IMG/VR virus record: IMGVR_UViG_3300046011_007876
Location: 1 to 57,759 of that record
DNA length: 57,759 bases
Strand: one strand, 5' to 3'
DNA from: a virus
Lineage: Duplodnaviria; Caudoviricetes
Shown here one piece after another: positions 1-10,920 of the stretch. The translations under genes and the position numbers were made by a program. The notes under the pieces are model-generated. The model made no database searches and was not told where the DNA came from. It was given only the letters and a program-made list of their open reading frames with translations. Every line of letters starts with the position of its first letter. Within the stretch, counting starts at the first letter, position 1.

Positions 1-190
1 CCCAAAGTTTATTTAAGTCTAAAACAGAATCCCATTTGCAGTTAGTAGTTCCATAAGGCAAATCGCAAATAATAGCATCAATTGATTTATCATCAATAAA
101 AGGAAAAACATCAAAGCAATCAGCTTTCACAAAAGTACTGCCACTAACACGTGTTTGGCAAAATGGCTGTTCAGTAATTCTATCAATCAT
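1..190 (-). CDS. Site-specific DNA amino-methyltransferase (N6A/N4C, beta class), 5' part; runs off the window
   Basis: My translation: [57 protein letters not shown]...[11 protein letters not shown] is the typical start and DPPY-type motif IV. Not in the ORF track. Confidence 0.85.
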
Positions 191-267
191 TCGTTCTTAA
201 TTTTAAAGTTTAGTAATTCTATTTAAGTTCTGGTTCAGCCACTTCGCCAAGCCCGATAACGTTATGT
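142..267 (+). mobile_element. attC-like recombination site 1
   Basis: CACTAAC (142-148) ... GTTATGT (261-267) enclose the inverted repeat TTGGCAAAATGGCTG (155-169) / CAGCCACTTCGCCAA (236-250), 13/15 complementary. Confidence 0.7.
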
Positions 268-288
268 GTAAGTGTTCCACCATTCCTT

Positions 289-636
289 CTAATCAACATA
301 TATTTTGTCACCAAATTTTGAATACATAAACATCATTAACAATTCCGCTTCCATATCAACAGAAGAATAGTGTGAGATAACCTCTTCACCGTTTTGATTT
401 AATTGATGTTTTTTTTCAATGAACTCACCTAATTCATCACAGTAATCGGAAAAGATTTTTTTATCTAATACCACATCGCAAATATTTATCAATCGCCACA
501 TCAAATAAATTTGTAAACTACACCCATAACCATATTCAACTATATGTTCACAATCTTTTGGCACTTGACCATTTGTTTTAAATTCGTATTTTTTCATATT
601 TTTTTCTTTTAAAATTTTGTGATTAATAATCCACAC
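289..636 (-). CDS. Hypothetical cassette-borne protein (real start possibly MKKYEF, near 597)
   Basis: ORF fills the space between two attC-like sites. Confidence 0.7.
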   Translation of the reverse strand: MWIINHKILKEKNMKKYEFKTNGQVPKDCEHIVEYGYGCSLQIYLMWRLINICDVVLDKKIFSDYCDELGEFIEKKHQLNQNGEEVISHYSSVDMEAELLMMFMYSKFGDKIYVD

Positions 637-640
637 CTAC

Positions 641-694
641 ACATAACAAAGTGTAAAAAACATTAAAACGATTTTTTACACTCAACCGTTATAA
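641..694 (+). mobile_element. attC-like recombination site 2 (short)
   Basis: ACATAAC (641-647), AGTGTAAAAAA (650-660) / TTTTTTACACT (672-682) perfect inverted repeat, GTTATAA (688-694). 636-647 is complementary (11/12) to 261-272. Confidence 0.7.
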
Positions 695-778
695 CCATTC
701 GGCCATATTATTTTTATCACTTCTACCCATTTGGTCATAAACCTCATCCAAATAAACATCTATTCTAACGTAACTCAT
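689..778 (-). pseudogene. 29-aa ORF, possibly a gene truncated by cassette insertion
   Basis: MSYVRIDVYLDEVYDQMGRSDKNNMAEWL*. It has its own promoter at 794-801, and its stop codon coincides with the TTA of the attC core GTTA. Confidence 0.45.
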
Positions 779-793
779 TTTTTTATATTTTTA

Positions 794-801
794 CAAAGTT
801 A
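794..801 (-). promoter_or_regulatory. Bacteroidota-type -7 promoter element (TAACTTTG) pointing into the cassette array
   Basis: Matches TAnnTTTG; lies just downstream of the ligase terminator. Confidence 0.6.
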
Positions 802-803
802 AT

Positions 804-840
804 AAAAAAAAGTGACTCAACCAAATTAATGGGAGTCACC
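804..840 (-). terminator. Probable intrinsic terminator after the RNA ligase
   Basis: GTGACTC...GAGTCAC stem followed by a T-run on the minus strand. Confidence 0.55.
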
Positions 841-1959
841 TACGTTATTTTTTTCACCATATATCAAGTAGTCAGGGTTGATTACTTTTGATACTTTTCT
901 ACGGTCACCAGTTATAGATTTAACAACAACACCTTCGTGTGGTACTTTGGTACTTTCTATGTTATTATTAAACACAAAAGTATCTTGTATTTCTTTAACC
1001 CATATACCCTGGTATAACAATTCAACCTGTGGTAATTGTAAACAATCAAAATGTACGGTTTCATTTATGTATGGTTGATACACTCCATCAACTTGGACAT
1101 CAAAACCGGCAAATTTAACATCAGTCAACCCATATTCGTAGTTTTTTTGTATACCGGCTCCGTATATCTCACCATATATTACAAAACCTTCGGTTAAATC
1201 AAGTGGCTCATAAGTATCTTTTACGTGATCCCACAACTTACCTCTTATATCGTATTGGTTTGCCACAGTTTTCCATACATCGGTGTCGTAGAATCCTTGA
1301 GAGTCGGATCCCTTTTCTACGTTATGAGAACCATAAACATATTCAAATGCTACCCATTTATTTCCAAAGAACATTTTAACACGGTCCAATAAAGAAAGTT
1401 TTTTCTTTCTTACGATTCCATATCTGGCATTTGTTCCGTGTAACTTACGAGTTATAACAACCTCATCTTCTTCATTGAACATATCTGGTACATTCTTCTG
1501 GTTAGGAAACTTGTAGTAAACGTGGAAGTTGGGGTTTTGGTGGTATTTTATTTTACGTCCACCAACACTTAACTGAACGGTTTTAACTGGGGGTTCGTAT
1601 TTAGTTACACCCAATATAGTCATCATATCATCACCTTCGTTTACATTGTTCTCCAAAGATTTTGGTGCCAAGTATTTGAATGGTATTAATAAGCATTCAG
1701 AATAAACTCCACGAAGTTTAACAGTGCGGACTCTTTGCCCTTTGCGAAGGTAGTTAGTTACACCCATTAAATCAGATAAATCCTGTGGTATTACAGCATC
1801 AGTAGTTGCAACAACAACCTTATCACCAACTTGATATTCACCTTTTTTGGTTATGGCGTTCCATCCACCAACAGTTACTAATTCTATATTATCAGCACCT
1901 GGTATTTCAGACACGGATCCTATTTTTCCTACGTATGCAACACTATTTAAATTTTTCAT
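826..1959 (-). CDS. ATP-dependent RNA ligase (Rnl2/DRB0094-like) with N-terminal OB-like domain
   Basis: Motifs KLHGTN (I), YGEIYG (III), FAGFDV (IIIa), EGVV (IV), KVIN (V); N-terminal IPGADNIEL. Confidence 0.9.
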   Translation of the reverse strand: MKNLNSVAYVGKIGSVSEIPGADNIELVTVGGWNAITKKGEYQVGDKVVVATTDAVIPQDLSDLMGVTNYLRKGQRVRTVKLRGVYSECLLIPFKYLAPKSLENNVNEGDDMMTILGVTKYEPPVKTVQLSVGGRKIKYHQNPNFHVYYKFPNQKNVPDMFNEEDEVVITRKLHGTNARYGIVRKKKLSLLDRVKMFFGNKWVAFEYVYGSHNVEKGSDSQGFYDTDVWKTVANQYDIRGKLWDHVKDTYEPLDLTEGFVIYGEIYGAGIQKNYEYGLTDVKFAGFDVQVDGVYQPYINETVHFDCLQLPQVELLYQGIWVKEIQDTFVFNNNIESTKVPHEGVVVKSITGDRRKVSKVINPDYLIYGEKNNVGDSH

Positions 1960-1961
1960 TT

Positions 1962-2222
1962 TTATATATTTTCAAATTCTTCTTTTACTGAATCAATTTC
2001 TTCTTTCAATCTTTCAAGTTCTTTGGATAACATCTCTTTAATGGCTCCTTTGTTATAAAGACTAACCTCATCTTTTCTTGGAAAAGACCCTCCTATTGAG
2101 TAACCAATTGTCACACCTAAAGAACAAGATTTTAACGCAGATTCCAATTTATACTTCTGTCTTTCCAACCTATCAAGATCTTCTTTAATTTTTTTTGCTT
2201 TTTCAAATTTTTCTAATTCCAT
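1962..2222 (-). CDS. Hypothetical coiled-coil protein
   Basis: ORF tightly packed in the operon. Confidence 0.75.
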   Translation of the reverse strand: MELEKFEKAKKIKEDLDRLERQKYKLESALKSCSLGVTIGYSIGGSFPRKDEVSLYNKGAIKEMLSKELERLKEEIDSVKEEFENI

Positions 2223-2353
2223 CAGTCATTCATTTTTAAACTAGGTGTTAATAACAAAGCAAAAAGACACATAGCACTTCCTGTAAAGTAAACTGCGGTT
2301 CCTATTAATCCAAAGAAACCTAAATAAATCAAACTAATTCCTAAATATTTCAT
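2222..2353 (-). CDS. 43-aa membrane protein
   Basis: My translation: MKYLGISLIYLGFFGLIGTAVYFTGSAMCLFALLLTPSLKMND. TGATG overlap with the next gene; promoter 4 nt upstream. Confidence 0.7.
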   Translation of the reverse strand: MKYLGISLIYLGFFGLIGTAVYFTGSAMCLFALLLTPSLKMND

Positions 2354-2357
2354 ATCA

Positions 2358-2365
2358 CAAAGGTA
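2358..2365 (-). promoter_or_regulatory. TAnnTTTG promoter element, 4 nt before ATG
   Basis: TACCTTTG-tgat-ATG. Confidence 0.65.
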
Positions 2366-2377
2366 TAAATAATTTTT

Positions 2378-2899
2378 TTAATTATCACTATCTTCTTCAA
2401 GATATTTCTTCATTGATTTTGGTTCAACAAAATCCCACTTTTTACTTTCAAATTCTTCAATCCATTCTTTCAAATCTTCTCTTGTCCATATTGGTCCAAA
2501 AGAAGGTCTGTATTGGAATGGTACATTATCTTTATTTTCCCACTCATCAAGTCGTTGTGTTACATCATCAATAAAGTTTTTAGTTTTAGTGTGTTTAATC
2601 CACTCTCTGTAATCGTCTTCAGATTTAATAAACATAACATCACCATAATTATAAAACTCCATTTCAGGAAATTCTAAATTGGGGTTGTTGGTATAAACAT
2701 CAACAATACCATTGTCTCCGTAATATGAATCACAAAGTTCTCTTAAAGAATATAAACTACTTGGTCTTTCTTCCCAGACACTACCGAACTGACGGACAGA
2801 ACAGATATACAAATACCCATCTTCATAAGAATTTATTTTATATTCAATTTTATTTCGTAATGAAATAAGTTCGTCCATTGTTAGTTTATCTAAGTTCAT
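2378..2899 (-). CDS. Hypothetical protein
   Basis: 173-aa ORF, ATGA overlap with the upstream gene. Confidence 0.8.
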   Translation of the reverse strand: MNLDKLTMDELISLRNKIEYKINSYEDGYLYICSVRQFGSVWEERPSSLYSLRELCDSYYGDNGIVDVYTNNPNLEFPEMEFYNYGDVMFIKSEDDYREWIKHTKTKNFIDDVTQRLDEWENKDNVPFQYRPSFGPIWTREDLKEWIEEFESKKWDFVEPKSMKKYLEEDSDN

Positions 2900-3147
2900 A
2901 GTATTATGTATGTTGATAAAGCATTACGTATCATTCTAATTTTTTCAAGTATTTCTTCTGGCGTTTCTTTAACTTTGAAACCTCCGTTATTATGTGTTGT
3001 TACACCAACCACAGTATGTTTTTTTGATATTGGTTCTCCTTGATGCCACATTTGACTTTCCTTTACTTCGTAAAAATGTCCAATTTCATTAATATTGATG
3101 TAAATGAAACTATCGTCTTTATGGGATGTTAATTTAATTAGTTTCAT
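2896..3147 (-). CDS. FlbD-like small phage protein
   Basis: IKLT...IYININEI...VKETPEEILEKI pattern. Confidence 0.6.
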   Translation of the reverse strand: MKLIKLTSHKDDSFIYININEIGHFYEVKESQMWHQGEPISKKHTVVGVTTHNNGGFKVKETPEEILEKIRMIRNALSTYIIL

Positions 3148-3148
3148 A

Positions 3149-3532
3149 TTATTTCTCTTTTTGTTCTACAATCTCAATTAGCTTTTCAAGACAAACAAGT
3201 TCTGCTTTTTCATAAGTTTTGTAACCATCTTTTGATAAATCACGCGAACCATATTTAAACTTACCTGTTTTATACCAAAAGCAATTCATATCAGTTATCC
3301 AAAAAATTTCAGATTGTAACTGATACTTCTCTCTAAACCATCTAAATGCTTGTTGCCAAGTTAGTGCTAAAATATAATCTTCCTCTCCTTCCAAAAAATC
3401 TATTGTTGCTAATTGAATATCAATTTTCTTATATTCTTCTTGTTCTGTGTACCAATATCCAAAACAAGGCTCATCAAATCCAAGTTGCTTCATCTTTAAA
3501 GCTAACTCATAAGGTACAAATTCTTTTTCCAT
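3149..3532 (-). CDS. Hypothetical protein, tandem paralog A
   Basis: MEKEFVPYELALKMKQLGFDEPC...QAFRWFREKY...CLEKLIEIV. Confidence 0.8.
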   Translation of the reverse strand: MEKEFVPYELALKMKQLGFDEPCFGYWYTEQEEYKKIDIQLATIDFLEGEEDYILALTWQQAFRWFREKYQLQSEIFWITDMNCFWYKTGKFKYGSRDLSKDGYKTYEKAELVCLEKLIEIVEQKEK

Positions 3533-3741
3533 TCTATTCTGATTTAATTTGTTCTACAATTTCAATTAACTTTTCAAGACAAGCAAGTTCTGTTTCTTCG
3601 TAAGTTTTATAATCATTTTTTGATAAATCACGTGAACTATATTTAAACTTACCTGTTTTATACCAAAAACAGTTCATATCAGTTATCCAAAGAATTTCAG
3701 ATTGTAACTGATACTTCTCTCTAAACCATCTAAATGCTTGT
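3161..3741. repeat. 193-bp direct repeat (3161-3353 and 3549-3741)
   Basis: Manual alignment gives 14 mismatches and no gaps. Confidence 0.9.
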
Positions 3742-3947
3742 GAGTAGGTTGGTGCCGATGTAAAATGTTCAGGAATTTCAGAGTTCTTACAAGTGGCAAA
3801 ACCTGTTCTAATATACTCATCTCTATCATCAACACCACAAGGTTTTTCTTCAAAGTTCTCTACTTGATAAAAAGCAAAACAAGACCCATTATACCCAAGT
3901 TTTTTCATCCTTAAAGCAAGTGAGTATATAACAAATTCTTTTTCCAT
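3534..3947 (-). CDS. Hypothetical protein, tandem paralog B (start corrected to 3947)
   Basis: MEKEFVIYSLALRMKKLG matches the paralog A start; TATCTTTG (3952-3959) lies 4 nt upstream. Confidence 0.8.
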   Translation of the reverse strand: MEKEFVIYSLALRMKKLGYNGSCFAFYQVENFEEKPCGVDDRDEYIRTGFATCKNSEIPEHFTSAPTYSQAFRWFREKYQLQSEILWITDMNCFWYKTGKFKYSSRDLSKNDYKTYEETELACLEKLIEIVEQIKSE

Positions 3948-3948
3948 A

Positions 3949-4371
3949 TCACAAAGATAAATGTTTTTTTGCATTTTCCAAAAATAATTCAATATTTTTT
4001 TTACCAACAGGATTTGCCGAATGGACCAAATATTCCGGTAATGGTTGGTTTTCATCCGCACAATATTCAACAAGGAATTTAGCACAATCAAGTCCAGTTT
4101 TTTCTTTGATGTTGTCGTAATCCAAAGTTCCTTTGGTTGCAACATTTCTAAAATATTCATCCATTGCAGTATCACCAAGGTCGTGATCAAATGATACAAA
4201 TTCAGGAGCACCATTTACTTCTAAGTATTGTACGAACTCGTCATAGTTTCTTACAACATCCCAATCATTCTCCCAATAAAACTTATTATGTTTATCAGGA
4301 ACCAATCCTATTGCGTCCTTTGGTGAACGCACGTCATCTAAAAAAAGTTTACAATTCTTCATATAATCCAT
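3949..4371 (-). CDS. Cyclic-phosphate-processing receiver-like domain protein
   Basis: LFLDDVR, VVRNYDEF, SFDHDLG, TGLDCAKFL, VHSANPVG. Confidence 0.75.
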   Translation of the reverse strand: MDYMKNCKLFLDDVRSPKDAIGLVPDKHNKFYWENDWDVVRNYDEFVQYLEVNGAPEFVSFDHDLGDTAMDEYFRNVATKGTLDYDNIKEKTGLDCAKFLVEYCADENQPLPEYLVHSANPVGKKNIELFLENAKKHLSL

Positions 4372-4891
4372 TTTCTTCGTCGTCTTTCATCATTTGTGTT
4401 AATCTAGCTTCTCTCGAATACTTTCGTATAAGTTTGAATATCTCTGTAATATCCGTAAATTCAGATACAGGACTATCATTTCTTCCTGGAAGAAATATTA
4501 AAGTAAATCCGTGATTTGCCTCAAACTTTTCGGTAACTCTAATTCCACAGATTTCATCAATATAAACCCAAGGAAAGTTTCCCGATAGTTTTACATCAAT
4601 TCCTATTTTTTTCAATCTTTCAACAAACCTTGTAATCTTATCACCGGTTAGTTTTGTTGGACTTTCAGTTTCCACGTAAGTCCCAAATTTAGTTTCTTTT
4701 ATTTTCATACTAGAATTTTTCCATTCTTTCCAAACATCAAAGTCTTTAAGTTTTTCTAAAAACTCATCATCCATTTTTTTTGCTTGTTCAAATAATTCAT
4801 CAAACCTATCCCAATTTAAGTTAAGAAATGTTGTATCACCATCTTTTTCAAATTGTTCTTTTAACCATTTTAACGTCTGTTTTACTTCCAT
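4349..4891 (-). CDS. Hypothetical protein
   Basis: 180-aa ORF in the operon. Confidence 0.75.
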   Translation of the reverse strand: MEVKQTLKWLKEQFEKDGDTTFLNLNWDRFDELFEQAKKMDDEFLEKLKDFDVWKEWKNSSMKIKETKFGTYVETESPTKLTGDKITRFVERLKKIGIDVKLSGNFPWVYIDEICGIRVTEKFEANHGFTLIFLPGRNDSPVSEFTDITEIFKLIRKYSREARLTQMMKDDEENGLYEEL

Positions 4892-5048
4892 AACATTCTA
4901 ATTTTTTATCTTTAACATTCCACAAATCTTTTTTTCCCTCAGTCATATGACAATTGTGTTTCTTACCAGTTCTGTCGGCAAAATCAACAATCATATCATT
5001 ATGACGATTACGAATAAAGTGGGGACATTCTTTACAAGGTTTTTTCAT
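4848..5048 (-). CDS. Small Cys/His-rich (probable Zn-binding) protein
   Basis: KPCKECP...CH...C. Confidence 0.65.
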   Translation of the reverse strand: MKKPCKECPHFIRNRHNDMIVDFADRTGKKHNCHMTEGKKDLWNVKDKKLECYGSKTDVKMVKRTI

Positions 5049-5052
5049 AATA

Positions 5053-5265
5053 CTAAACCTTTACCCAACCAAATTTATTTTCAGAACTAACTTTAATTAA
5101 ACCTTTCTCAACCAAATCATATGCAATATTCCAAGATTTATATGCGATTACTTTTTCATAACCTTTTTTGTCTTTAGTTATTAAATAGATATTATCAAAT
5201 TGCCAAACAATACCTTCTTTTTCTAAGACATCCATAAATAATTGTTCCTTCTTTGTTAATTTCAT
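5053..5265 (-). CDS. Hypothetical protein
   Basis: ORF with TATCTTTG (5270-5277) 4 nt upstream. Confidence 0.75.
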   Translation of the reverse strand: MKLTKKEQLFMDVLEKEGIVWQFDNIYLITKDKKGYEKVIAYKSWNIAYDLVEKGLIKVSSENKFGWVKV

Positions 5266-5301
5266 AAGACAAAGATAGAAAATTATTTTAAATTAACCAA
5301 A

Positions 5302-6531
5302 TTATTTTTTGTATTTGTAGGAAGTTTCTATTGGTCTTTTACCATATCTTTTTTCCATAAGTTTTTGGTGTAATTCCCAATCTAATATAGATTCATTTGT
5401 TTGACCTTTTTCGTCAGGAATTAATGAATAAACTTTTGATATTCTTTTAATTAGTTTTGTTGCAACATAATTAAATCTTTCACATTCATCTTTGAAAAAG
5501 TCCATCTCTCTATTTTCATATTTTGTTACGTGATTACGATATTTGTTAAGAAGTTTTGTTTTGCTTTCTGATGGTGCTTTTCCTCCAAACAATTGTGAAA
5601 AAGGTCCCATTTTTGAAAACATAGTTTCTTTAATGGATAAAATATATTTTTCAAAAAATTCCATTTTTGTGTTTGATAAATTAATATAAACTAACTCTAA
5701 AACCATTTTTATATTTTCTTTGGGTGAATTTTCTTTTGGATTTTCTCCGGCGTGTTCAAGTAAAGCAAAAACTCTATCCATTTGATCGTACAAACTTTGA
5801 ATTAAATATTCAAAAGAAAAATTTTGTATTTTCTTTAATTCTTTAATTACATCATCATTCATTAAAAATTCATAAAAATTTTCTCTTGTAATTCCTTTTT
5901 GAGTCATTCTTGATGCAACTTCTGTTGGTCTAACCACATTTTCTTCATTTTGAATAAAATAACTATATCTCATAAATTCATTAATAACTGGTATTCCAAA
6001 GTTTAGTCGACCTGAAGAGTAAGTTTGGTAATCCGCAGTATCACCGGCTAATCCTTTTGTTTTTTTACTTCTTTTAAATCTGTGCATTAATTCATGAGCC
6101 ATTGTTGATATATTTTGTGTTTCATATTGTATAAAACTATTATATAAATCACTTGGTTGCCATCCTTCTGGAACAATAAACTGAATAAATAAATCAATAG
6201 TTGATGTTTCAGCGTTAATTTGCATCATAATACCCTCATCAAAATTAAATTCATTTCCAACACCCATTGAAGCAATTACAGCTTCAGTACCATCATATTC
6301 CTCTAATTCTTCAACTTTTATAAGTAAATTTAAATTTGTAAAATTTACATCAGAAACCCTTAAATCAATTTCAATATCTTCAAATAAGTATTCTTCTTCA
6401 GTTGAGTTAATTTCTTTTAATTTACTTTTAACAATATCATATAGTACTTTTCCTTCATCAAGAATATTTTCTGGAACACCTACGGCCTCTTTGATTAATT
6501 TTAATTGAGATTCTGTTATAATGATTTTCAT
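5302..6531 (-). CDS. Putative zincin-like (HExxH) protein, probably head-packaged
   Basis: TMAHELMH with a downstream NEE; N-terminal MKIIITESQLKLIKE; TATTTAT upstream. Confidence 0.6.
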   Translation of the reverse strand: MKIIITESQLKLIKEAVGVPENILDEGKVLYDIVKSKLKEINSTEEEYLFEDIEIDLRVSDVNFTNLNLLIKVEELEEYDGTEAVIASMGVGNEFNFDEGIMMQINAETSTIDLFIQFIVPEGWQPSDLYNSFIQYETQNISTMAHELMHRFKRSKKTKGLAGDTADYQTYSSGRLNFGIPVINEFMRYSYFIQNEENVVRPTEVASRMTQKGITRENFYEFLMNDDVIKELKKIQNFSFEYLIQSLYDQMDRVFALLEHAGENPKENSPKENIKMVLELVYINLSNTKMEFFEKYILSIKETMFSKMGPFSQLFGGKAPSESKTKLLNKYRNHVTKYENREMDFFKDECERFNYVATKLIKRISKVYSLIPDEKGQTNESILDWELHQKLMEKRYGKRPIETSYKYKK

Positions 6532-6557
6532 AATAATAAATATAATAGAGTTGTGAT

Positions 6558-7211
6558 TTAACCCACAACTCCTATTAAATTGTCTAAATGGTGATCTCCG
6601 GATATATCAGACCCTACCGGTCTTTTATTCATCATTTTAATGATATCTGAAATATCATATGGATTCATACCATTTCCATCCATTCCAACATCCAATCTTT
6701 TTCCGTTACCAAATTTATTTTCTCTACCTAAATGAACGTGACCATGTAAATGAATTACACCTTTGTTTAGACCGTTCCAGCTTTGGAGTGGGTAATGACA
6801 TAATACAAAGCTTACATCGTTAATTTTAACTTCAAGATAATGGTTGACACTTAAAAACCGATTTTGTATGTCACCTCTGTTATTTTCAATATGATGGTCG
6901 TGATTTCCTAATATTAGATGAATGTTTTTGCAAACCAATCTATCAAGGAATAATCCTATATTATCAAAACCACCAAATGAAACATCACCTAACATTATTA
7001 GTGTGTCGTCTTGTCTTACCATATTGTTAATACCATCAATAATTCTTTCGTTCATTTGTTCAATAGTTTCAAAATCCCTAACCGAATCAACTGGTATTTC
7101 ACCATCCTGGGTTCTCCAGTTTGTCACACCACGAACAATATTTTTATGACCGTAGTGTGTGTCTGAAGTTATGAATACTTTTCCTGTTGTTAATATTTTT
7201 TTAAAGTTCAT
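6558..7211 (-). CDS. Calcineurin-like metallophosphoesterase
   Basis: SDTHYGH, LGDVS, GNHD, CHYP, HGHVH motifs. Confidence 0.9.
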   Translation of the reverse strand: MNFKKILTTGKVFITSDTHYGHKNIVRGVTNWRTQDGEIPVDSVRDFETIEQMNERIIDGINNMVRQDDTLIMLGDVSFGGFDNIGLFLDRLVCKNIHLILGNHDHHIENNRGDIQNRFLSVNHYLEVKINDVSFVLCHYPLQSWNGLNKGVIHLHGHVHLGRENKFGNGKRLDVGMDGNGMNPYDISDIIKMMNKRPVGSDISGDHHLDNLIGVVG

Positions 7212-7223
7212 AATTTTTATTTT

Positions 7224-8177
7224 TTAAGGTAAAACATCACCGGTATAATTAACACTTATCCTTGGATAATCACTGATTCTTCTTGTTACTTCATATTCAC
7301 CTTGGTTTGGTAAATCATCGATTGATCCTACTGGTTTCATATACTGTTCAGATGTCCAATTACTATTATAACGATTAAGATCCATTAAACTTCTTATTCT
7401 GTCAAGTATAGTTGGACCGTCTTCCGCTCCAATATTACCTTGGTGAATATTAATTATATCTGAAATAGAAACTGGTTTATTTCTGGTTTCACCATAAATC
7501 AAATCAATTGTTCTTTCATTTTTTTGTAATTCTTTTCTAATCTTTAAAAAGATTTCATCCGGAATCCAATCTATAAACATTGGACTAACTTCACTATCGT
7601 CTGCGGTCCAAGCTTGGAATTTATCGTCACCATAATCTCTTGAGAAAGCGATTTTAGTATCAATTTTTTTATTAATACAATAAACTAACCTATGTGTTTT
7701 TAAGTATTTGTCCCAATATCTTTCTTGTGTTGTACACCATTTTGTATTTGATCCGTAAACCCTTGAGGCATCAAAACTTAAAGGTGTTAATACTAACCAG
7801 GTGTCATCTTCGTGTATTTTTAAAATTTGTTTTTCAACTTCTTTTTGTTTTTCAATATCTTCAGCAATCTTAACTTGTTCGTGTAATTCAAGAAAATTGT
7901 TATATTTACTAATGTCTTTTTCTTTTATTCTATTAGCTCTTGAGTGTCTTTCAAATTCATTTAAAACTTCAATTTCATTTGAGCCGAACAAAAATACCCC
8001 TAGATAACCTTTAAGTTCATCCAAATTTGGACTGTAATATTGGTTATCCCTTTTAAAGTTTTTAATTAAAAACTCGGTATACTTGTAAGTACCAGTCGGA
8101 TCTAATGATGTTATTATATCAATTAATGATACATTTAAATCCGAATGTTGTTCTTTAAGTTTGTCTAATCTACTCAT
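7224..8177 (-). CDS. Protein with WCT-motif (PcfJ-like) domain
   Basis: IHEDDTWLVLTP...SRVYGSNTKWCTT; related to part of 16163-18118. Confidence 0.55.
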   Translation of the reverse strand: MSRLDKLKEQHSDLNVSLIDIITSLDPTGTYKYTEFLIKNFKRDNQYYSPNLDELKGYLGVFLFGSNEIEVLNEFERHSRANRIKEKDISKYNNFLELHEQVKIAEDIEKQKEVEKQILKIHEDDTWLVLTPLSFDASRVYGSNTKWCTTQERYWDKYLKTHRLVYCINKKIDTKIAFSRDYGDDKFQAWTADDSEVSPMFIDWIPDEIFLKIRKELQKNERTIDLIYGETRNKPVSISDIINIHQGNIGAEDGPTILDRIRSLMDLNRYNSNWTSEQYMKPVGSIDDLPNQGEYEVTRRISDYPRISVNYTGDVLP

Positions 8178-8578
8178 AATTTATACTCAAAACGATTTTT
8201 CATTTGTTCTATTTTATCTTCTGGAACATTGTGTTCGTTAGTTCCTCCGTGTCTGTTTTCAACAATTATAGTAAAAACTTTATATCCATATTTTTTTGCT
8301 AACTCAAAATATGGTTCCATTTCCCATTCTTGTGTAAATGTATTTGAAACTGTAATTCTATCTGTGTTTACTTGGTCTCCTTTTGTTTGCATCCAGGCTT
8401 CAGTTTGTGCTATACAATATTCGTGAGCAAACTTAATTTTTGACCCATCGAATTTGTAATTACCTTCACCATCCATAAAATATTGGTCAGCTTCAACTAT
8501 AATTGAGTTTAATGTTCTGGCAAATGTTGTTTTTCCTGATCCCGGAATTCCTCTAACTATGTATAATATTTTTTCCAT
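8174..8578 (-). CDS. P-loop kinase (AAA_33 / polynucleotide kinase-like)
   Basis: IVRGIPGSGKTT, EADQYF, VSNTF, HNVP. Confidence 0.85.
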   Translation of the reverse strand: MEKILYIVRGIPGSGKTTFARTLNSIIVEADQYFMDGEGNYKFDGSKIKFAHEYCIAQTEAWMQTKGDQVNTDRITVSNTFTQEWEMEPYFELAKKYGYKVFTIIVENRHGGTNEHNVPEDKIEQMKNRFEYKL

Positions 8579-8611
8579 ATTACAAAATTAAGAAATAAAC
8601 TTTAATAAAAC

Positions 8612-8696
8612 AAGAAAGGGAACAAATTTGTTCCCTTAATTTGGGTCGACATTGAATGTCAACTCTCCACCACCTTGTTTTTATAGAACAAGGAAA
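8612..8696 (-). other. Intergenic triple-hairpin element (terminator plus possible structured RNA)
   Basis: Minus strand: CCTTGTT..AACAAGG, GTTGACATT..AATGTCGAC, AGGGAACAA..TTGTTCCCT followed by Ts. Confidence 0.5.
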
Positions 8697-8969
8697 CTAT
8701 TTTGTAACCAAAGCTTCAATCTTGGATCTAACCTGTTCTGTTAGAGTAATTTCTTTTGTGTTTGTTACAATAATACAGTTAACTAGTGTATTTGCCGGTA
8801 TGTTAATATAAAATGTTTCGTTATTAAAAAAAGATAAGTTTTCTTTAAGTTCAACACTTGCGTGGACCATTTTCAAAAATATTCTGAATTGTGTTTGGTC
8901 AACAAATGTTTCATTAAGTAATTCACCGTGAGTTTCGTGTATGATTCTTATGTTGTGTCCTATTTTCAT
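8697..8969 (-). CDS. Hypothetical protein
   Basis: ORF with TATATTTG (8974-8981) 4 nt upstream. Confidence 0.75.
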   Translation of the reverse strand: MKIGHNIRIIHETHGELLNETFVDQTQFRIFLKMVHASVELKENLSFFNNETFYINIPANTLVNCIIVTNTKEITLTEQVRSKIEALVTK

Positions 8970-9002
8970 AATACAAATATAGGTATTTTATTTTAATAAA
9001 AC

Positions 9003-9047
9003 AAAAAATCCCAAAAATTATTTTACTAATCTTTGGGATTGTTTTTT
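9003..9047. terminator. Intrinsic terminator-like hairpin
   Basis: AATCCCAAA...TTTGGGATT flanked by A and T runs. Confidence 0.6.
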
Positions 9048-9132
9048 CTTAACCAGCTAATAAGTTGAAAGGGTGGTTTTAAGTTTTTTTTGTGTACTAT
9101 AAATATATAGTAATTTACCAAAAATCAACTTT

Positions 9133-9549
9133 TTATAATATTTTTTCAATAATTTTTCTTAATTGGTCATTATTTTTATTTATTGGTAAGTCTTTTTTTG
9201 AAAAATACTCACATTTTGTATGTTCGTGACCATCTTTTGCTTTATCTAAATCCGGTTCCAATTCTTTATTTGATTTATGTAAAAATACAAACATAATACC
9301 TTTTTTTAATTTCATATCATTTTGATATATGTGTAATAAACCAACTAAATTTAAATTACCGGATAACTTTAAATTTGTTTCTTCTCTAAATTCTCTAAGT
9401 GCACCTTCTTTTGGGTCTTCACCTTTTTCTAAATGTCCAGATGGTACCGACCATTGATTTGGTAATGATTCTTTTGGTCCTCTTTTACACAATAGAACTT
9501 TGTCTTTATGTTTAACAATTATTCCACCATATCTTTTAAATTGACCCAT
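9133..9549 (-). CDS. NUDIX hydrolase
   Basis: Nudix box GHLEKGEDPKEGALREFREETNL. Confidence 0.92.
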   Translation of the reverse strand: MGQFKRYGGIIVKHKDKVLLCKRGPKESLPNQWSVPSGHLEKGEDPKEGALREFREETNLKLSGNLNLVGLLHIYQNDMKLKKGIMFVFLHKSNKELEPDLDKAKDGHEHTKCEYFSKKDLPINKNNDQLRKIIEKIL

Positions 9550-9555
9550 ATTACT

Positions 9556-9571
9556 ATATTTATATAAATAT
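9556..9571. promoter_or_regulatory. Palindromic bidirectional late-promoter-like element
   Basis: Perfect palindrome ATATTTATATAAATAT in the 20-bp gap between divergent genes, reaching the 9570 start codon. Confidence 0.55.
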
Positions 9572-9914
9572 GGAAGTAATTGTAAATAATAATTTATTTA
9601 ATGTTAAAGTTATGATGACCAGAAAAGACATTGAATCTGGTATGATGGGTAAAAAATTTAACCGTGACTTTAATGGTATGTTATTTATAATGGATGATAA
9701 ACCACATTCTTTTTGGATGAAGAATTGTATAATACCTCTTGATATAATCTTTATTAGAAACAATAAAATAATAAAAATTCATAAAGATTGTCCACCTTGT
9801 AAATCAGAAGACTGTGATAGATATGAAGGTGAAGGTGATATGGTTTTAGAAATAAATGGTGGTGACTGCGATAAATATGATATCGTTGAGGGTGATAAAA
9901 TCCTAATCGACTAA
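9570..9914 (+). CDS. DUF192 family protein
   Basis: GMM...GMLF...SFWMKNCIIPLDIIFI...VLEINGG. Confidence 0.88.
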   Translation: MEVIVNNNLFNVKVMMTRKDIESGMMGKKFNRDFNGMLFIMDDKPHSFWMKNCIIPLDIIFIRNNKIIKIHKDCPPCKSEDCDRYEGEGDMVLEINGGDCDKYDIVEGDKILID

Positions 9915-10145
9915 TTTATTTTCTAGGTTTTTAATGTGATGATCAAGATACCATTTAGCTTTTCTTAAATCCTCAAGTTCTTTATTTGGATCCTTTTTAC
10001 CGGCCCTTGAAATATACTTAACAGTATTACCTAATGAGAATCCCAAATCCCAAGCATCAATAACTTTTATTGCTTCATAAATATTTGTCTCTCCACCATA
10101 ATGATTTGGGTGATTTACTTGTTCTTTATTTTGTTTATCAAGCAT
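9903..10145 (-). CDS. DUF3310 family protein
   Basis: VNHPNHY...LGNTVKYISRAGKK...EDLRKAKWYL. Confidence 0.9.
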   Translation of the reverse strand: MLDKQNKEQVNHPNHYGGETNIYEAIKVIDAWDLGFSLGNTVKYISRAGKKDPNKELEDLRKAKWYLDHHIKNLENKLVD

Positions 10146-10920
10146 TTAAAATTTCTTTTTGTTTATAATAATTTTCTAAATTTTGTTTTTGGTTTACGTA
10201 AGCAATCAATTTTCTTTTGAACATCGGAAGTAAAGTTTCGTTTATTGGAAACTCACCTCTACTTATCATCTCAAAAACTGGTAATTTTGTTTTATTTTCA
10301 ACATTCCACTTGCTAAGATTATTTATTATTTTTGGTATTGTCAAATCATTTTTTTGTTCAGAGTAGATTAAATTTGTTAGTACAACATTTTCTGGTGAGC
10401 CCTTTGCTGCCGGTTTGTTTTCAAATTCCCAAACATATAATTTGTTTTCTTTTTTATCAAAGAAATAAAAATAACCTTTCGGTTCTAAAACATTTTTTTT
10501 ATTCTTTTTAACTTGTAAATGTACACTATCAAAAACAAGTTCCCATACTGATTTTGCAAAACCAAAGTATTCAAACATTCTTGGAGCCGAATATGTTAAA
10601 ATTTTTATAAATTCTTCATATTCATCTTTTGACATTTCCGGAACATCTTTGATTTTTAAATCTTTAACAAGTAATTCATCATCAACTGTTGTGAATTTTT
10701 TTGTGGTATATAAAAGTTTTTTATCTTTTACAAGTGTTTGAACATTTGCTAAATGTAATGATAGTTCAATAAATCCTGGATATAATTCCATATTATCCAG
10801 TCTCTCACCCATCTTTTGAAAATACGATAAAAGTTTGTATTCTTTGTGTTCTCTGTCAATTGGTTTCTCGAACATCCAATCGGTGTTCATTAAAAATTCT
10901 ATTTTCTTTTTTCTTGCCAT
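10138..10920 (-). CDS. Hypothetical protein
   Basis: 260-aa ORF. Confidence 0.8.
   Translation of the reverse strand: MARKKKIEFLMNTDWMFEKPIDREHKEYKLLSYFQKMGERLDNMELYPGFIELSLHLANVQTLVKDKKLLYTTKKFTTVDDELLVKDLKIKDVPEMSKDEYEEFIKILTYSAPRMFEYFGFAKSVWELVFDSVHLQVKKNKKNVLEPKGYFYFFDKKENKLYVWEFENKPAAKGSPENVVLTNLIYSEQKNDLTIPKIINNLSKWNVENKTKLPVFEMISRGEFPINETLLPMFKRKLIAYVNQKQNLENYYKQKEILNA

Follow-up and report, generated by a model that had tools for sequence, protein, structure and literature searches.

What are the two hairpins at the left end of this phage DNA, and do the genes beside them move? The stretch analysed, called the window here, is the whole 57,759-nt IMG/VR virus record IMGVR_UViG_3300046011_007876 (Duplodnaviria; Caudoviricetes). 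Near its left end, two elements with AAC...GTT ends lie on either side of a single open reading frame (ORF), and the 5' part of a DNA methyltransferase gene follows. An earlier note, made from the letters alone, had described this arrangement, which we find at the same places, and had read it as integron-like attC gene cassettes within a phage. The cassette logic of that proposal holds; the term integron in its strict sense does not, as the enzyme that accompanies related sites is Xer-like and scores below the IntI cut-offs, and the bulk of each site stands 5' of its ORF. With a probability of about 0.8, we take positions 1-689 to be a two-cassette remnant of a phage-borne, integron-like array that has lost its own recombinase. 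That both sites are recombination-type sites bounding a small mobile cassette is supported by comparative, statistical and population evidence.

Two hairpin sites and their families

The left-end genes of the window lie on the minus strand throughout. Read in this gene sense, both sites have a common plan, in which TAAC|G and a short bulge precede a covarying stem with its loop, and GTTA comes last. The TAAC...GTTA ends are invariant, the bulge is asymmetric and a G.T is conserved, and the 7-nt RYYYAAC...GTTRRRY consensus is partly matched, as judged by eye only. In site 1, TAAC (264 to 261) is followed by the bulge (260 to 256), the 5' arm (255 to 236), an A+T-rich loop of 66 nt (235 to 170) that contains the methyltransferase start codon (190-188), the 3' arm (169 to 150), GTTA (148 to 145) and a cassette-specific outer strand reaching to about position 133. 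The 20-nt arms (150-169 and 236-255) are 80% complementary, and the minus strand folds with a z of -3.1, none of 200 shuffles folding equally well. As drawn in the earlier note, site 1 extends over 16 codons at the start of the methyltransferase ORF (190 to 2), and overlap with an N-terminal coding region recurs among other sites of this long type. Short-loop versions of the site exist as well: in metagenome contigs (X2, X10 and X22) the two arms are matched but enclose a different loop of 25-30 nt (window 166-239).

Site 2 is a perfect 11-bp hairpin (650-660 with 672-682), with fold z values of -3.8 (plus strand) and -4.2 (minus strand). In gene sense it consists of TAAC (691 to 688), a bulge, the stem (682 to 672 with 660 to 650) around the conserved loop TCGTTTTAATG (671 to 661), GTTA (647 to 644) and an outer 3' strand reaching to 633. 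The two sites lie 376 nt apart, and a Pfam search detected no PF00589 integrase in the record (57.8 kb), just as the earlier note had remarked for the window. Searches of Rfam at E <= 1 gave no match for window 1-3000, and only two chance miRNA rows for positions 1-10300 of filifjonk9-1, a phage described below.

The two sites belong to different families. Window 2-264 shares 89.7% DNA identity with the methyltransferase region of the Flavobacterium muminviruses, 38-kb siphoviruses unrelated to the window phage, and this similarity ends at GATAACGTTA| (position 264), inside the first GTT core of the earlier note. Nearly all intergenic regions of the muminvirus left arm adjoin the upstream stop codon with ..AACGTTA and follow one plan in gene sense: TAAC, a GTT-type bulge, an arm of ~20 nt, an A+T-rich loop of 60-70 nt, the complementary arm and GTTA. 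Across seven copies of this long type, 88.7% of cells were paired compared with 70.4% in shuffled copies (attained by 0/500 shuffles; 36-45% with slid partners), and 13 of the 20 stem pairs were altered on both sides. Several copies, as in the window, have their 3' arm within an annotated N-terminal coding region.

The seven copies were used to build a model, R1, which finds site 1 at 135-266 on the minus strand with 130 bits, this copy being one of the seven training rows. In filifjonk9-1, R1 detects 15 copies, all on the gene strand and all in the 10-kb left arm, with none in the other 28 kb. A scan of the window and 55 of 80 jumbo-phage loci (near-duplicates dropped by eye) returned only window 135-266 and the same site in one relative, contig L011. 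On Polaribacter phage P12002L, R1 gave no convincing match (best E 0.1); the long-type model does not see short-type sites.

Some minor observations concern this family. Two annotated 'hypothetical proteins' of 34 and 35 aa in filifjonk9-1 (locus L004, 2733-2837 and 7289-7396) coincide with R1 matches at 2745-2849 and 7338-7423, and these ORFs are probably recombination-type sites rather than genes. As a genome-wide signal AACGTT was rejected, since the window has 8 copies against 18.9 expected and the motif characterises just the left arm of the muminviruses. Its under-representation extends over the whole window (100/100 shuffles have at least 8) and may reflect restriction-site avoidance. 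Block A, tried as a Bacteroidota promoter (TTG..TAnnTTTG), suits some copies by eye and not others.

Site 2 shares its loop, TCGTTTTAATG, and its ends with two sites that lie between genes in the P12002L methyltransferase array. A pattern scan of IMG/VR for this loop yielded at least 120 stretches; among the 124 matches listed, 90 had a stem of at least 8/10 round the loop, and 72 of these had GTTA within 11 nt. In 41 copies of the short type, 162 cells showed changes on both sides compared with 51.5 in shuffles (0/500 attain this), and 96.1% of cells were paired against 71.4% when shuffled, a percentage inflated by the preselection of these copies, which also train the model R2, for stems of at least 9/10. 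R2 places site 2 at 642-693 on the minus strand with 74 bits; this copy is likewise a training row, and support independent of training comes from other IMG/VR contigs in which the inner element recurs with different flanks. At E <= 0.01, R2 has no match in filifjonk. The same pattern is present in bacterial genome contigs, where 51 TAACGG-anchored matches, 35 of them with good stems, fall mostly in Bacteroidota isolates and metagenome-assembled genomes; beside these sites, tblastn returned only three weak or partial recombinase rows in 120 loci.

A site split between the two ends of a cassette

The earlier note had claimed that the bases after the first core (261-272) are complementary to those ending in the AAC of the second site (636-647). 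This pairing is present and somewhat longer, with 14 of 15 nt (93%) complementary between 261-275 and 633-647, so that the cassette's 3' end has its partner beside its own site, 370 nt off. Taken alone, the 15-nt pairing of the window is not exceptional against chance: GTTA/TAAC-anchored pairs of at least 10/12 occur in six rows window-wide (three pairs, each on both strands), whereas 20 shuffles averaged 2.2 rows and reached at most 6. Two of these pairs, 30397/32810 and 31974/34132 (10/12), were tried as further sites; neither R1 nor R2 has a site there and they are taken as chance. The pairing in the window is convincing because the same geometry recurs in 15 of 15 muminvirus cassettes and because variants exist that lack exactly the 427 nt between the cores.

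The geometry was measured in filifjonk9-1 by comparing the 16 nt from the 3' GTTA of each site with the 16 nt ending in the next downstream TAAC. In all 15 cassettes the two ends match, with a mean of 13.2/16 Watson-Crick pairs plus one conserved G.T, compared with 7.9/16 for the adjacent upstream flank and 8.6/16 for background. None of 200,000 permutations attained the own-end total, and the own end was the row maximum in 13/15. Short-type sites behave alike: among IMG/VR sites with at least 1,500 nt downstream, a downstream partner of at least 9/12 was present in 27/43 (upstream control, 0/42), and their adjacent flanks average 4.3/12 matches. By reading, the methyltransferase cassette has a 12/14 match to its own end in L011.

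Folding in silico with DNA parameters gave stabler circle junctions in 15/15 filifjonk cassettes (mean -21.0 versus -13.8 kcal/mol). For the ORF cassette of the window, the circle junction reaches -19.7 kcal/mol compared with -9.8 kcal/mol in its integrated context, as one continuous hairpin in which a 3-nt bulge separates the outer stem (16 bp) from the inner one (12 bp) and the loop has 11 nt. The suggestion in the earlier note that a split site is re-formed when the cassette is excised as a circle is thus borne out in the window, in filifjonk and in IMG/VR contigs. The wobbles are asymmetric between strands and favour the gene-sense strand.

Cassette-wise variation and recombinase-linked arrays

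The window ORF cassette is still polymorphic in the population. Window 1-1400 is contained in 24 lake-water metagenome runs, and comparison was made with the assembled contigs of four runs, in which rare forms are invisible. In two runs from different studies (X12 and X22), a contig joins 259 to 687 and skips 427 nt, which are the predicted cassette 262-688; six letters (CGTTAT) fit either side of the joint. X22 has zero depth over 269-603 with both flanks covered, and in X2 the summed contig depth over the two sites is 4-18x that over the ORF. Parts without cover in other runs were not taken as evidence. Loose contig ends cluster at 136-145, 265, 638-643 and 691-693, and the inner parts of both sites therefore occur in many other contexts in these communities. 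A back-joint marking a circle was absent from the contigs of the four runs, which cannot show rare forms; the joints 657 to 202 and 650 to 643 carry 38-40 foreign letters, mark other repeat contexts and were rejected as circle marks.

Closely related muminviruses vary in the same manner. Mumin, filifjonk and tooticki are 99.5-99.9% identical where aligned and lie four whole-gene insertions, deletions or swaps apart. All four events have their junctions at ..TAAC| in gene sense, with 5-8 nt of shared identity in three of the four and 32 nt in one. Together with the 427-nt skip and the stop in similarity at 264, these events agree with the forecast in the earlier note of cassette-wise presence and absence with breakpoints at the GTT core.

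The earlier note had held that a tyrosine recombinase from elsewhere would be needed, and related phages provide a candidate. The intact enzyme has 266 aa (contig L007, 737-1534), with PF00589 and PF13495 domains. It scores 189 against XerA (cut-off 220), 149 bits in two stretches against TIGR02249 (cut-off 265) and 94.5 against PRK15417 (cut-off 435). Its best solved relative is archaeal XerA (4A8E, 143 bits), and IntI4 (2A3V) aligned in two stretches only. Hence neither the window nor the array-associated recombinase provides an IntI-type integrase.

The association of this enzyme with the sites was examined in 80 IMG/VR loci fetched solely by the 266-aa recombinase (53-100% identity). At E <= 0.01, R2 detects 146 sites in 56 of these 80 loci, all of which share the strand of the recombinase gene and lie upstream of it; downstream of it there was none in up to 4 kb per locus. 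Seven matches came from a control set of comparable length (569 kb), namely the window, L011, L032/L033 and three in P12002L. Of 56 distinct upstream regions, 53 have TAAC with TAT[AG]T after it at 36-52 nt from the ATG, and the sequence to its left is variable and resembles cassette ends. This conserved junction before the start codon, TAAC|TAT.ATATAT, looks like an attI-like array end. In one locus (L218, recombinase gene at 4001-4798), a row of five or more single-ORF cassettes runs up to the recombinase junction, and every one of them pairs with its own end.

Three observations on these loci stand apart. In L053 a 262-aa GIY-YIG homing-endonuclease ORF (736-1524, minus) interrupts the recombinase, the remaining parts of which match residues 1-138 and 235-266. 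About 120 nt upstream of the TAAC|TATC junction in L009 and L078 lies a 13-bp stem, GAAGGCGTTTGGG / CCCAAACGCTTTT, with a loop of ~70 nt; neither model detects this stem, which may represent an additional type of site. In L106, L156 and L177, TAAC|TATTATATATC, the motif of the array end, also stands before genes other than the recombinase; it may double as a promoter there or mark arrays that no longer have the enzyme.

The same junction links the window to these arrays. In 81 locus rows, similarity to the window is lost at 688-693 in 30 and at 770-783 in 23, and only L011 (fetched also as L085) extends to window position 1. Relatives read through the 29-codon ORF (..AEWLYEDGIL..) as an 88-aa gene, whereas in the window the TAA stop codon of the truncated ORF is contributed by the junction. 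In place of 36 nt of this gene, the window and L011 carry a 1,349-nt insertion (L011 5274-6622) comprising, in order, site 2, the 102-aa ORF, site 1, the methyltransferase, TAAC|TAATATATATC... and the first five codons of the tyrosine recombinase. These five codons and the junction follow straight after the methyltransferase cassette in L011, which has no more cassettes to its left. Of the two outer borders of the block, one thus falls within a conserved gene and the other within the recombinase ORF. Because the insertion ends in a recombinase stub fused to the target gene at a 13-nt microhomology (L011), we take the outer borders to be illegitimate and the recombinase to have been lost.

Proposed mechanism and competing explanations

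A cassette starts, just after the TAAC|G core, with a short bulge, followed by the structured site, a covarying stem around a loop of 11 nt (short type) or 60-70 nt (long type). GTTA, ~12 cassette-specific bases, one ORF, ~12 complementary bases and TAAC complete it. As the ends are complementary, joining them in a circle rebuilds one long imperfect hairpin; within an array, neighbours each hold one part of the site. The Xer-like recombinase would cut cassettes out as circles and place them into TAAC|G cores, in the manner of IntI at G|TT, the folded strand presumably being that of gene sense. Cassettes may pass between unrelated Bacteroidota phages during co-infection, the methyltransferase cassette being shared with 38-kb siphoviruses, and their cargo may be mainly for counter-defence. 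The block in the window, consisting of the ORF cassette, the methyltransferase cassette, the array-end junction and five recombinase codons, would have entered a conserved gene by illegitimate recombination. The catalytic step, the folding strand and the source of enzyme for the muminviruses are inferred; as neither filifjonk9-1 nor the window has a recombinase, an enzyme acting in trans must be assumed.

In integrons, the site of a cassette lies 3' of a promoterless ORF, intI is divergent with attI and Pc between it and the array, and the folded bottom strand recombines as single-stranded DNA. The phage arrays resemble them in the direct repetition of single-ORF cassettes with diverse cargo, in an imperfect-hairpin site that ends in AAC...GTT, varies in its centre and has an unpaired spacer or bulge, in the splitting of this site at the core, in gain and loss by whole cassettes at that core, and in a tyrosine recombinase gene with a distinct junction at one array end. 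The layout is reversed, however: most of the site stands 5' of the ORF and may contain its start codon, the recombinase is a 266-aa Xer-like protein that is co-oriented with the array and lies downstream of 146/146 sites, ~16 nt rather than 6 are swapped at the junction, and the carriers are phages.

Xer recombinases are known to act on folded single-stranded DNA, as in the integration of CTX-phi, and Xer-dependent dif modules occur on Acinetobacter plasmids. The phage cassettes share with the latter a likely Xer-family catalyst and discrete modules bounded by recombinase sites. The 28-bp 11-6-11 sites in inverted pairs are not evident by reading; the sites are instead directly oriented hairpins, 52-150 nt long, whose outer strands differ from cassette to cassette.

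The closest published case found in the literature is that of Qi et al., 2023 (PMC9892861), who describe 17 clusters of attC lacking an integrase (CALINs) in phages, including one in P12002L with two methyltransferases. One of the attC predicted in this methyltransferase array (HattCI/Infernal) recombined with attI1 under IntI1, at G|TTRRRY. The part of the paper available locates the clusters in virulent phages, regards their sites as attC of bacterial type, reports divergent site directions and names no phage recombinase; the words 'Flavobacterium' and 'Muminvirus' are absent from its main text. The P12002L cluster, like the window, belongs to a Bacteroidota phage, has hairpin sites separating DNA methyltransferase genes and no integrase nearby, and shares with site 2 the loop and ends given above. 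The muminvirus paper (PMC7077304) describes variable methyltransferases, and the words cassette and integrase are absent from the portion available.

This raises the alternative that the sites are ordinary attC, or CALINs, recombined by the IntI of the hosts, with the phage Xer-like recombinase irrelevant, which we regard as unlikely. The AAC..GTT cores and the cassette logic match such a view, as do the lack of a recombinase in both muminviruses and window, the loop and ends shared between site 2 and the P12002L array, and the recombination of one predicted P12002L attC by IntI1. The P12002L sites tested in that study may, however, be other than those described here. The alternative also leaves aside the arrays standing directly upstream of an Xer-like recombinase, on its strand, in 56/80 loci, with a conserved junction by the start codon; it has the site on the wrong side of the ORF, and the loops of 60-70 nt in the long type are unpaired.

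A slightly smaller chance is given to regulatory RNA or DNA hairpins (5'-untranslated structures, terminators or processing sites, those of RNase III type included), with mosaicism arising from general or microhomology recombination between repeats, as in T4-type phages. In those phages, promoter-early stem-loop (PeSL) repeats support gene shuffling by homologous recombination between direct repeats. Here too stem-loops stand 5' of small accessory genes in the hyperplastic region of a large phage with gene-by-gene mosaicism; every site stands immediately 5' of an ORF and in its sense, wobbles compatible with G.U pairing are retained, start codons fall within long-type loops, the muminviruses encode an exonuclease and a NinG-type recombination protein with no integrase, and both outer borders of the block arose at microhomologies. 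Under homologous exchange between repeats, however, there is no reason for a 3' end to pair with its own distant site rather than with its neighbour, and neither own-end complementarity nor a dedicated tyrosine recombinase belongs to the PeSL scheme. Long repeats for homologous exchange are wanting, with only 5-8 nt of identity at the junctions in 3/4 muminvirus events, the polar tie to the recombinase is unexplained and Rfam provides no match. That an ordinary hairpin merely coincides with a fortuitous 15-nt inverted repeat in A+T-rich DNA is scarcely credible, for although anchored pairs of at least 10/12 are only ~3x as frequent as in shuffles and AACGTT is not enriched in the window, the statistics on covariation, own-end pairing and recombinase association all oppose it, and the precise 427-nt skip with the family-wide statistics already refutes it.

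Several points weigh against the reading of the window as a remnant of a recombinase-driven array. The evidence for recombination is indirect and, for the population, comes from assembled contigs only, and the six nt shared at the ends of the 427-nt deletion mean that a microhomology-mediated deletion could yield the same form. Judged by sequence, the block is joined to the phage DNA on either side at illegitimate junctions. R2 finds no match in 24 of the 80 recombinase loci, 11 of which have <400 nt of upstream sequence, and the complete filifjonk9-1 genome has no PF00589 recombinase. One P12002L cassette shows, by reading, only partial own-end pairing. The conserved G.T wobbles on the gene-sense strand suit an mRNA structure as well as folded single-stranded DNA, and the start codons in long-type loops mean that sites may also be regulatory. 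To these come the preselection of the short-type copies mentioned above and a cargo scan (below) in which the upstream ORFs were not checked singly as cassette-borne.

Beyond the remnant itself, it seems fairly probable that Bacteroidota phages, from 38-kb siphoviruses to jumbo phages of ~280 kb, share an unrecognised analogue of the integron with an Xer-like recombinase, an attI-like junction and 5'-site cassettes, through which they exchange a stock of counter-defence genes (DNA methyltransferases, a Thoeris inhibitor and ADP-ribosyltransferases). Such a cassette system appears to be widespread and barely described in these phages, and appears to use a non-IntI, Xer-like recombinase. The usual explanation for gene-by-gene mosaicism in the accessory regions of phages is illegitimate or relaxed homologous recombination. 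If the proposal is true, it would offer a concrete and testable mechanism for acquiring and swapping anti-restriction and anti-defence genes, even across unrelated phage families, and a viral mirror image of the bacterial integrons that bank defence systems. The integron principle would then also run on an Xer-like enzyme and a differently arranged site, which bears on the evolution of IntI from Xer. It would account for the small 'hypothetical proteins' of the muminvirus arrays that coincide with sites; the recombinase, the junction and the sites all have defined coordinates, and R1 and R2 together with the recombinase would constitute a marker for mining counter-defence genes in viromes.

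Cargo and gene layout

The methyltransferase is complete in L011, which stood in for the part beyond the contig end, with 264 aa (5773-6567) and a Pfam match to PF01555 (E 1.2e-34). Its similarity to the muminviruses runs from core to core and is highest at the cassette ends (83-97% and 87-88% identity, compared with 50-73% in the middle), in accord with the suggestion in the earlier note that a methyltransferase is carried as cassette cargo. The conserved ends fit nucleotide-level selection on the site-forming parts. The 102-aa ORF of the other cassette belongs to no Pfam or NCBIfam family; its 16 homologues (62-98% identity) are all unnamed, and among the 80 relatives only L011 has it.

Upstream of the recombinases there are 502 ORFs of at least 40 aa, in 405 clusters at 50% identity. 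A Pfam scan of 99 cluster representatives and the window ORF (100 in all) identified nine DNA methyltransferases of four families, two ART-PolyVal proteins and one Thoeris inhibitor, Tad6; NUDIX, GTP cyclohydrolase I, thymidylate synthase and SmpB were other single matches.

Table 1. Features at the left end of the window (positions of the 57,759-nt record).
Feature	Position	Strand	Evidence or remark
RNA-ligase-like ORF	1959->826	minus	First in gene-sense order at the left end
29-codon ORF, truncated start of 88-aa gene	690..778	minus	Intact 88-aa ORF in L013
Site 2, short type	642..693	minus	Hairpin, folds, model R2
Cassette cargo ORF, 102 aa (115 aa from GTG at 636)	289..597 or 289..636	minus	ORF list
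Site 1, long type	135..266	minus	Inverted repeat, fold, model R1, covariation
PF01555 (N6/N4) DNA methyltransferase ORF, 5' part	2..190	minus	Cargo of the second cassette; cut by contig end
3' end of the ORF cassette, gene sense ACACTTACACATAAC (outer 5' strand + TAAC)	261..275	minus	Pairs with 633-647, not with the adjoining flank
Whole ORF cassette, 427 nt (site 2 + one ORF)	262..688	minus	Borders ambiguous within CGTTAT (260-265, 687-692)

CheckV puts the completeness of the record at 20%, and because contigs of its relatives reach 210-300 kb, we regard it as a fragment of a jumbo phage. No joining of its left to its right end was found, and the remainder of the methyltransferase therefore lies outside the window. 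Elsewhere in the window, two adjacent minus-strand ORFs (3149-3532 and 3534-4214) share a near-identical C-terminal segment of ~75 aa, ..AFRWFREKYQLQSEI.WITDMNCFWYKTGKFKY.., and look like tandem paralogues in an accessory region.

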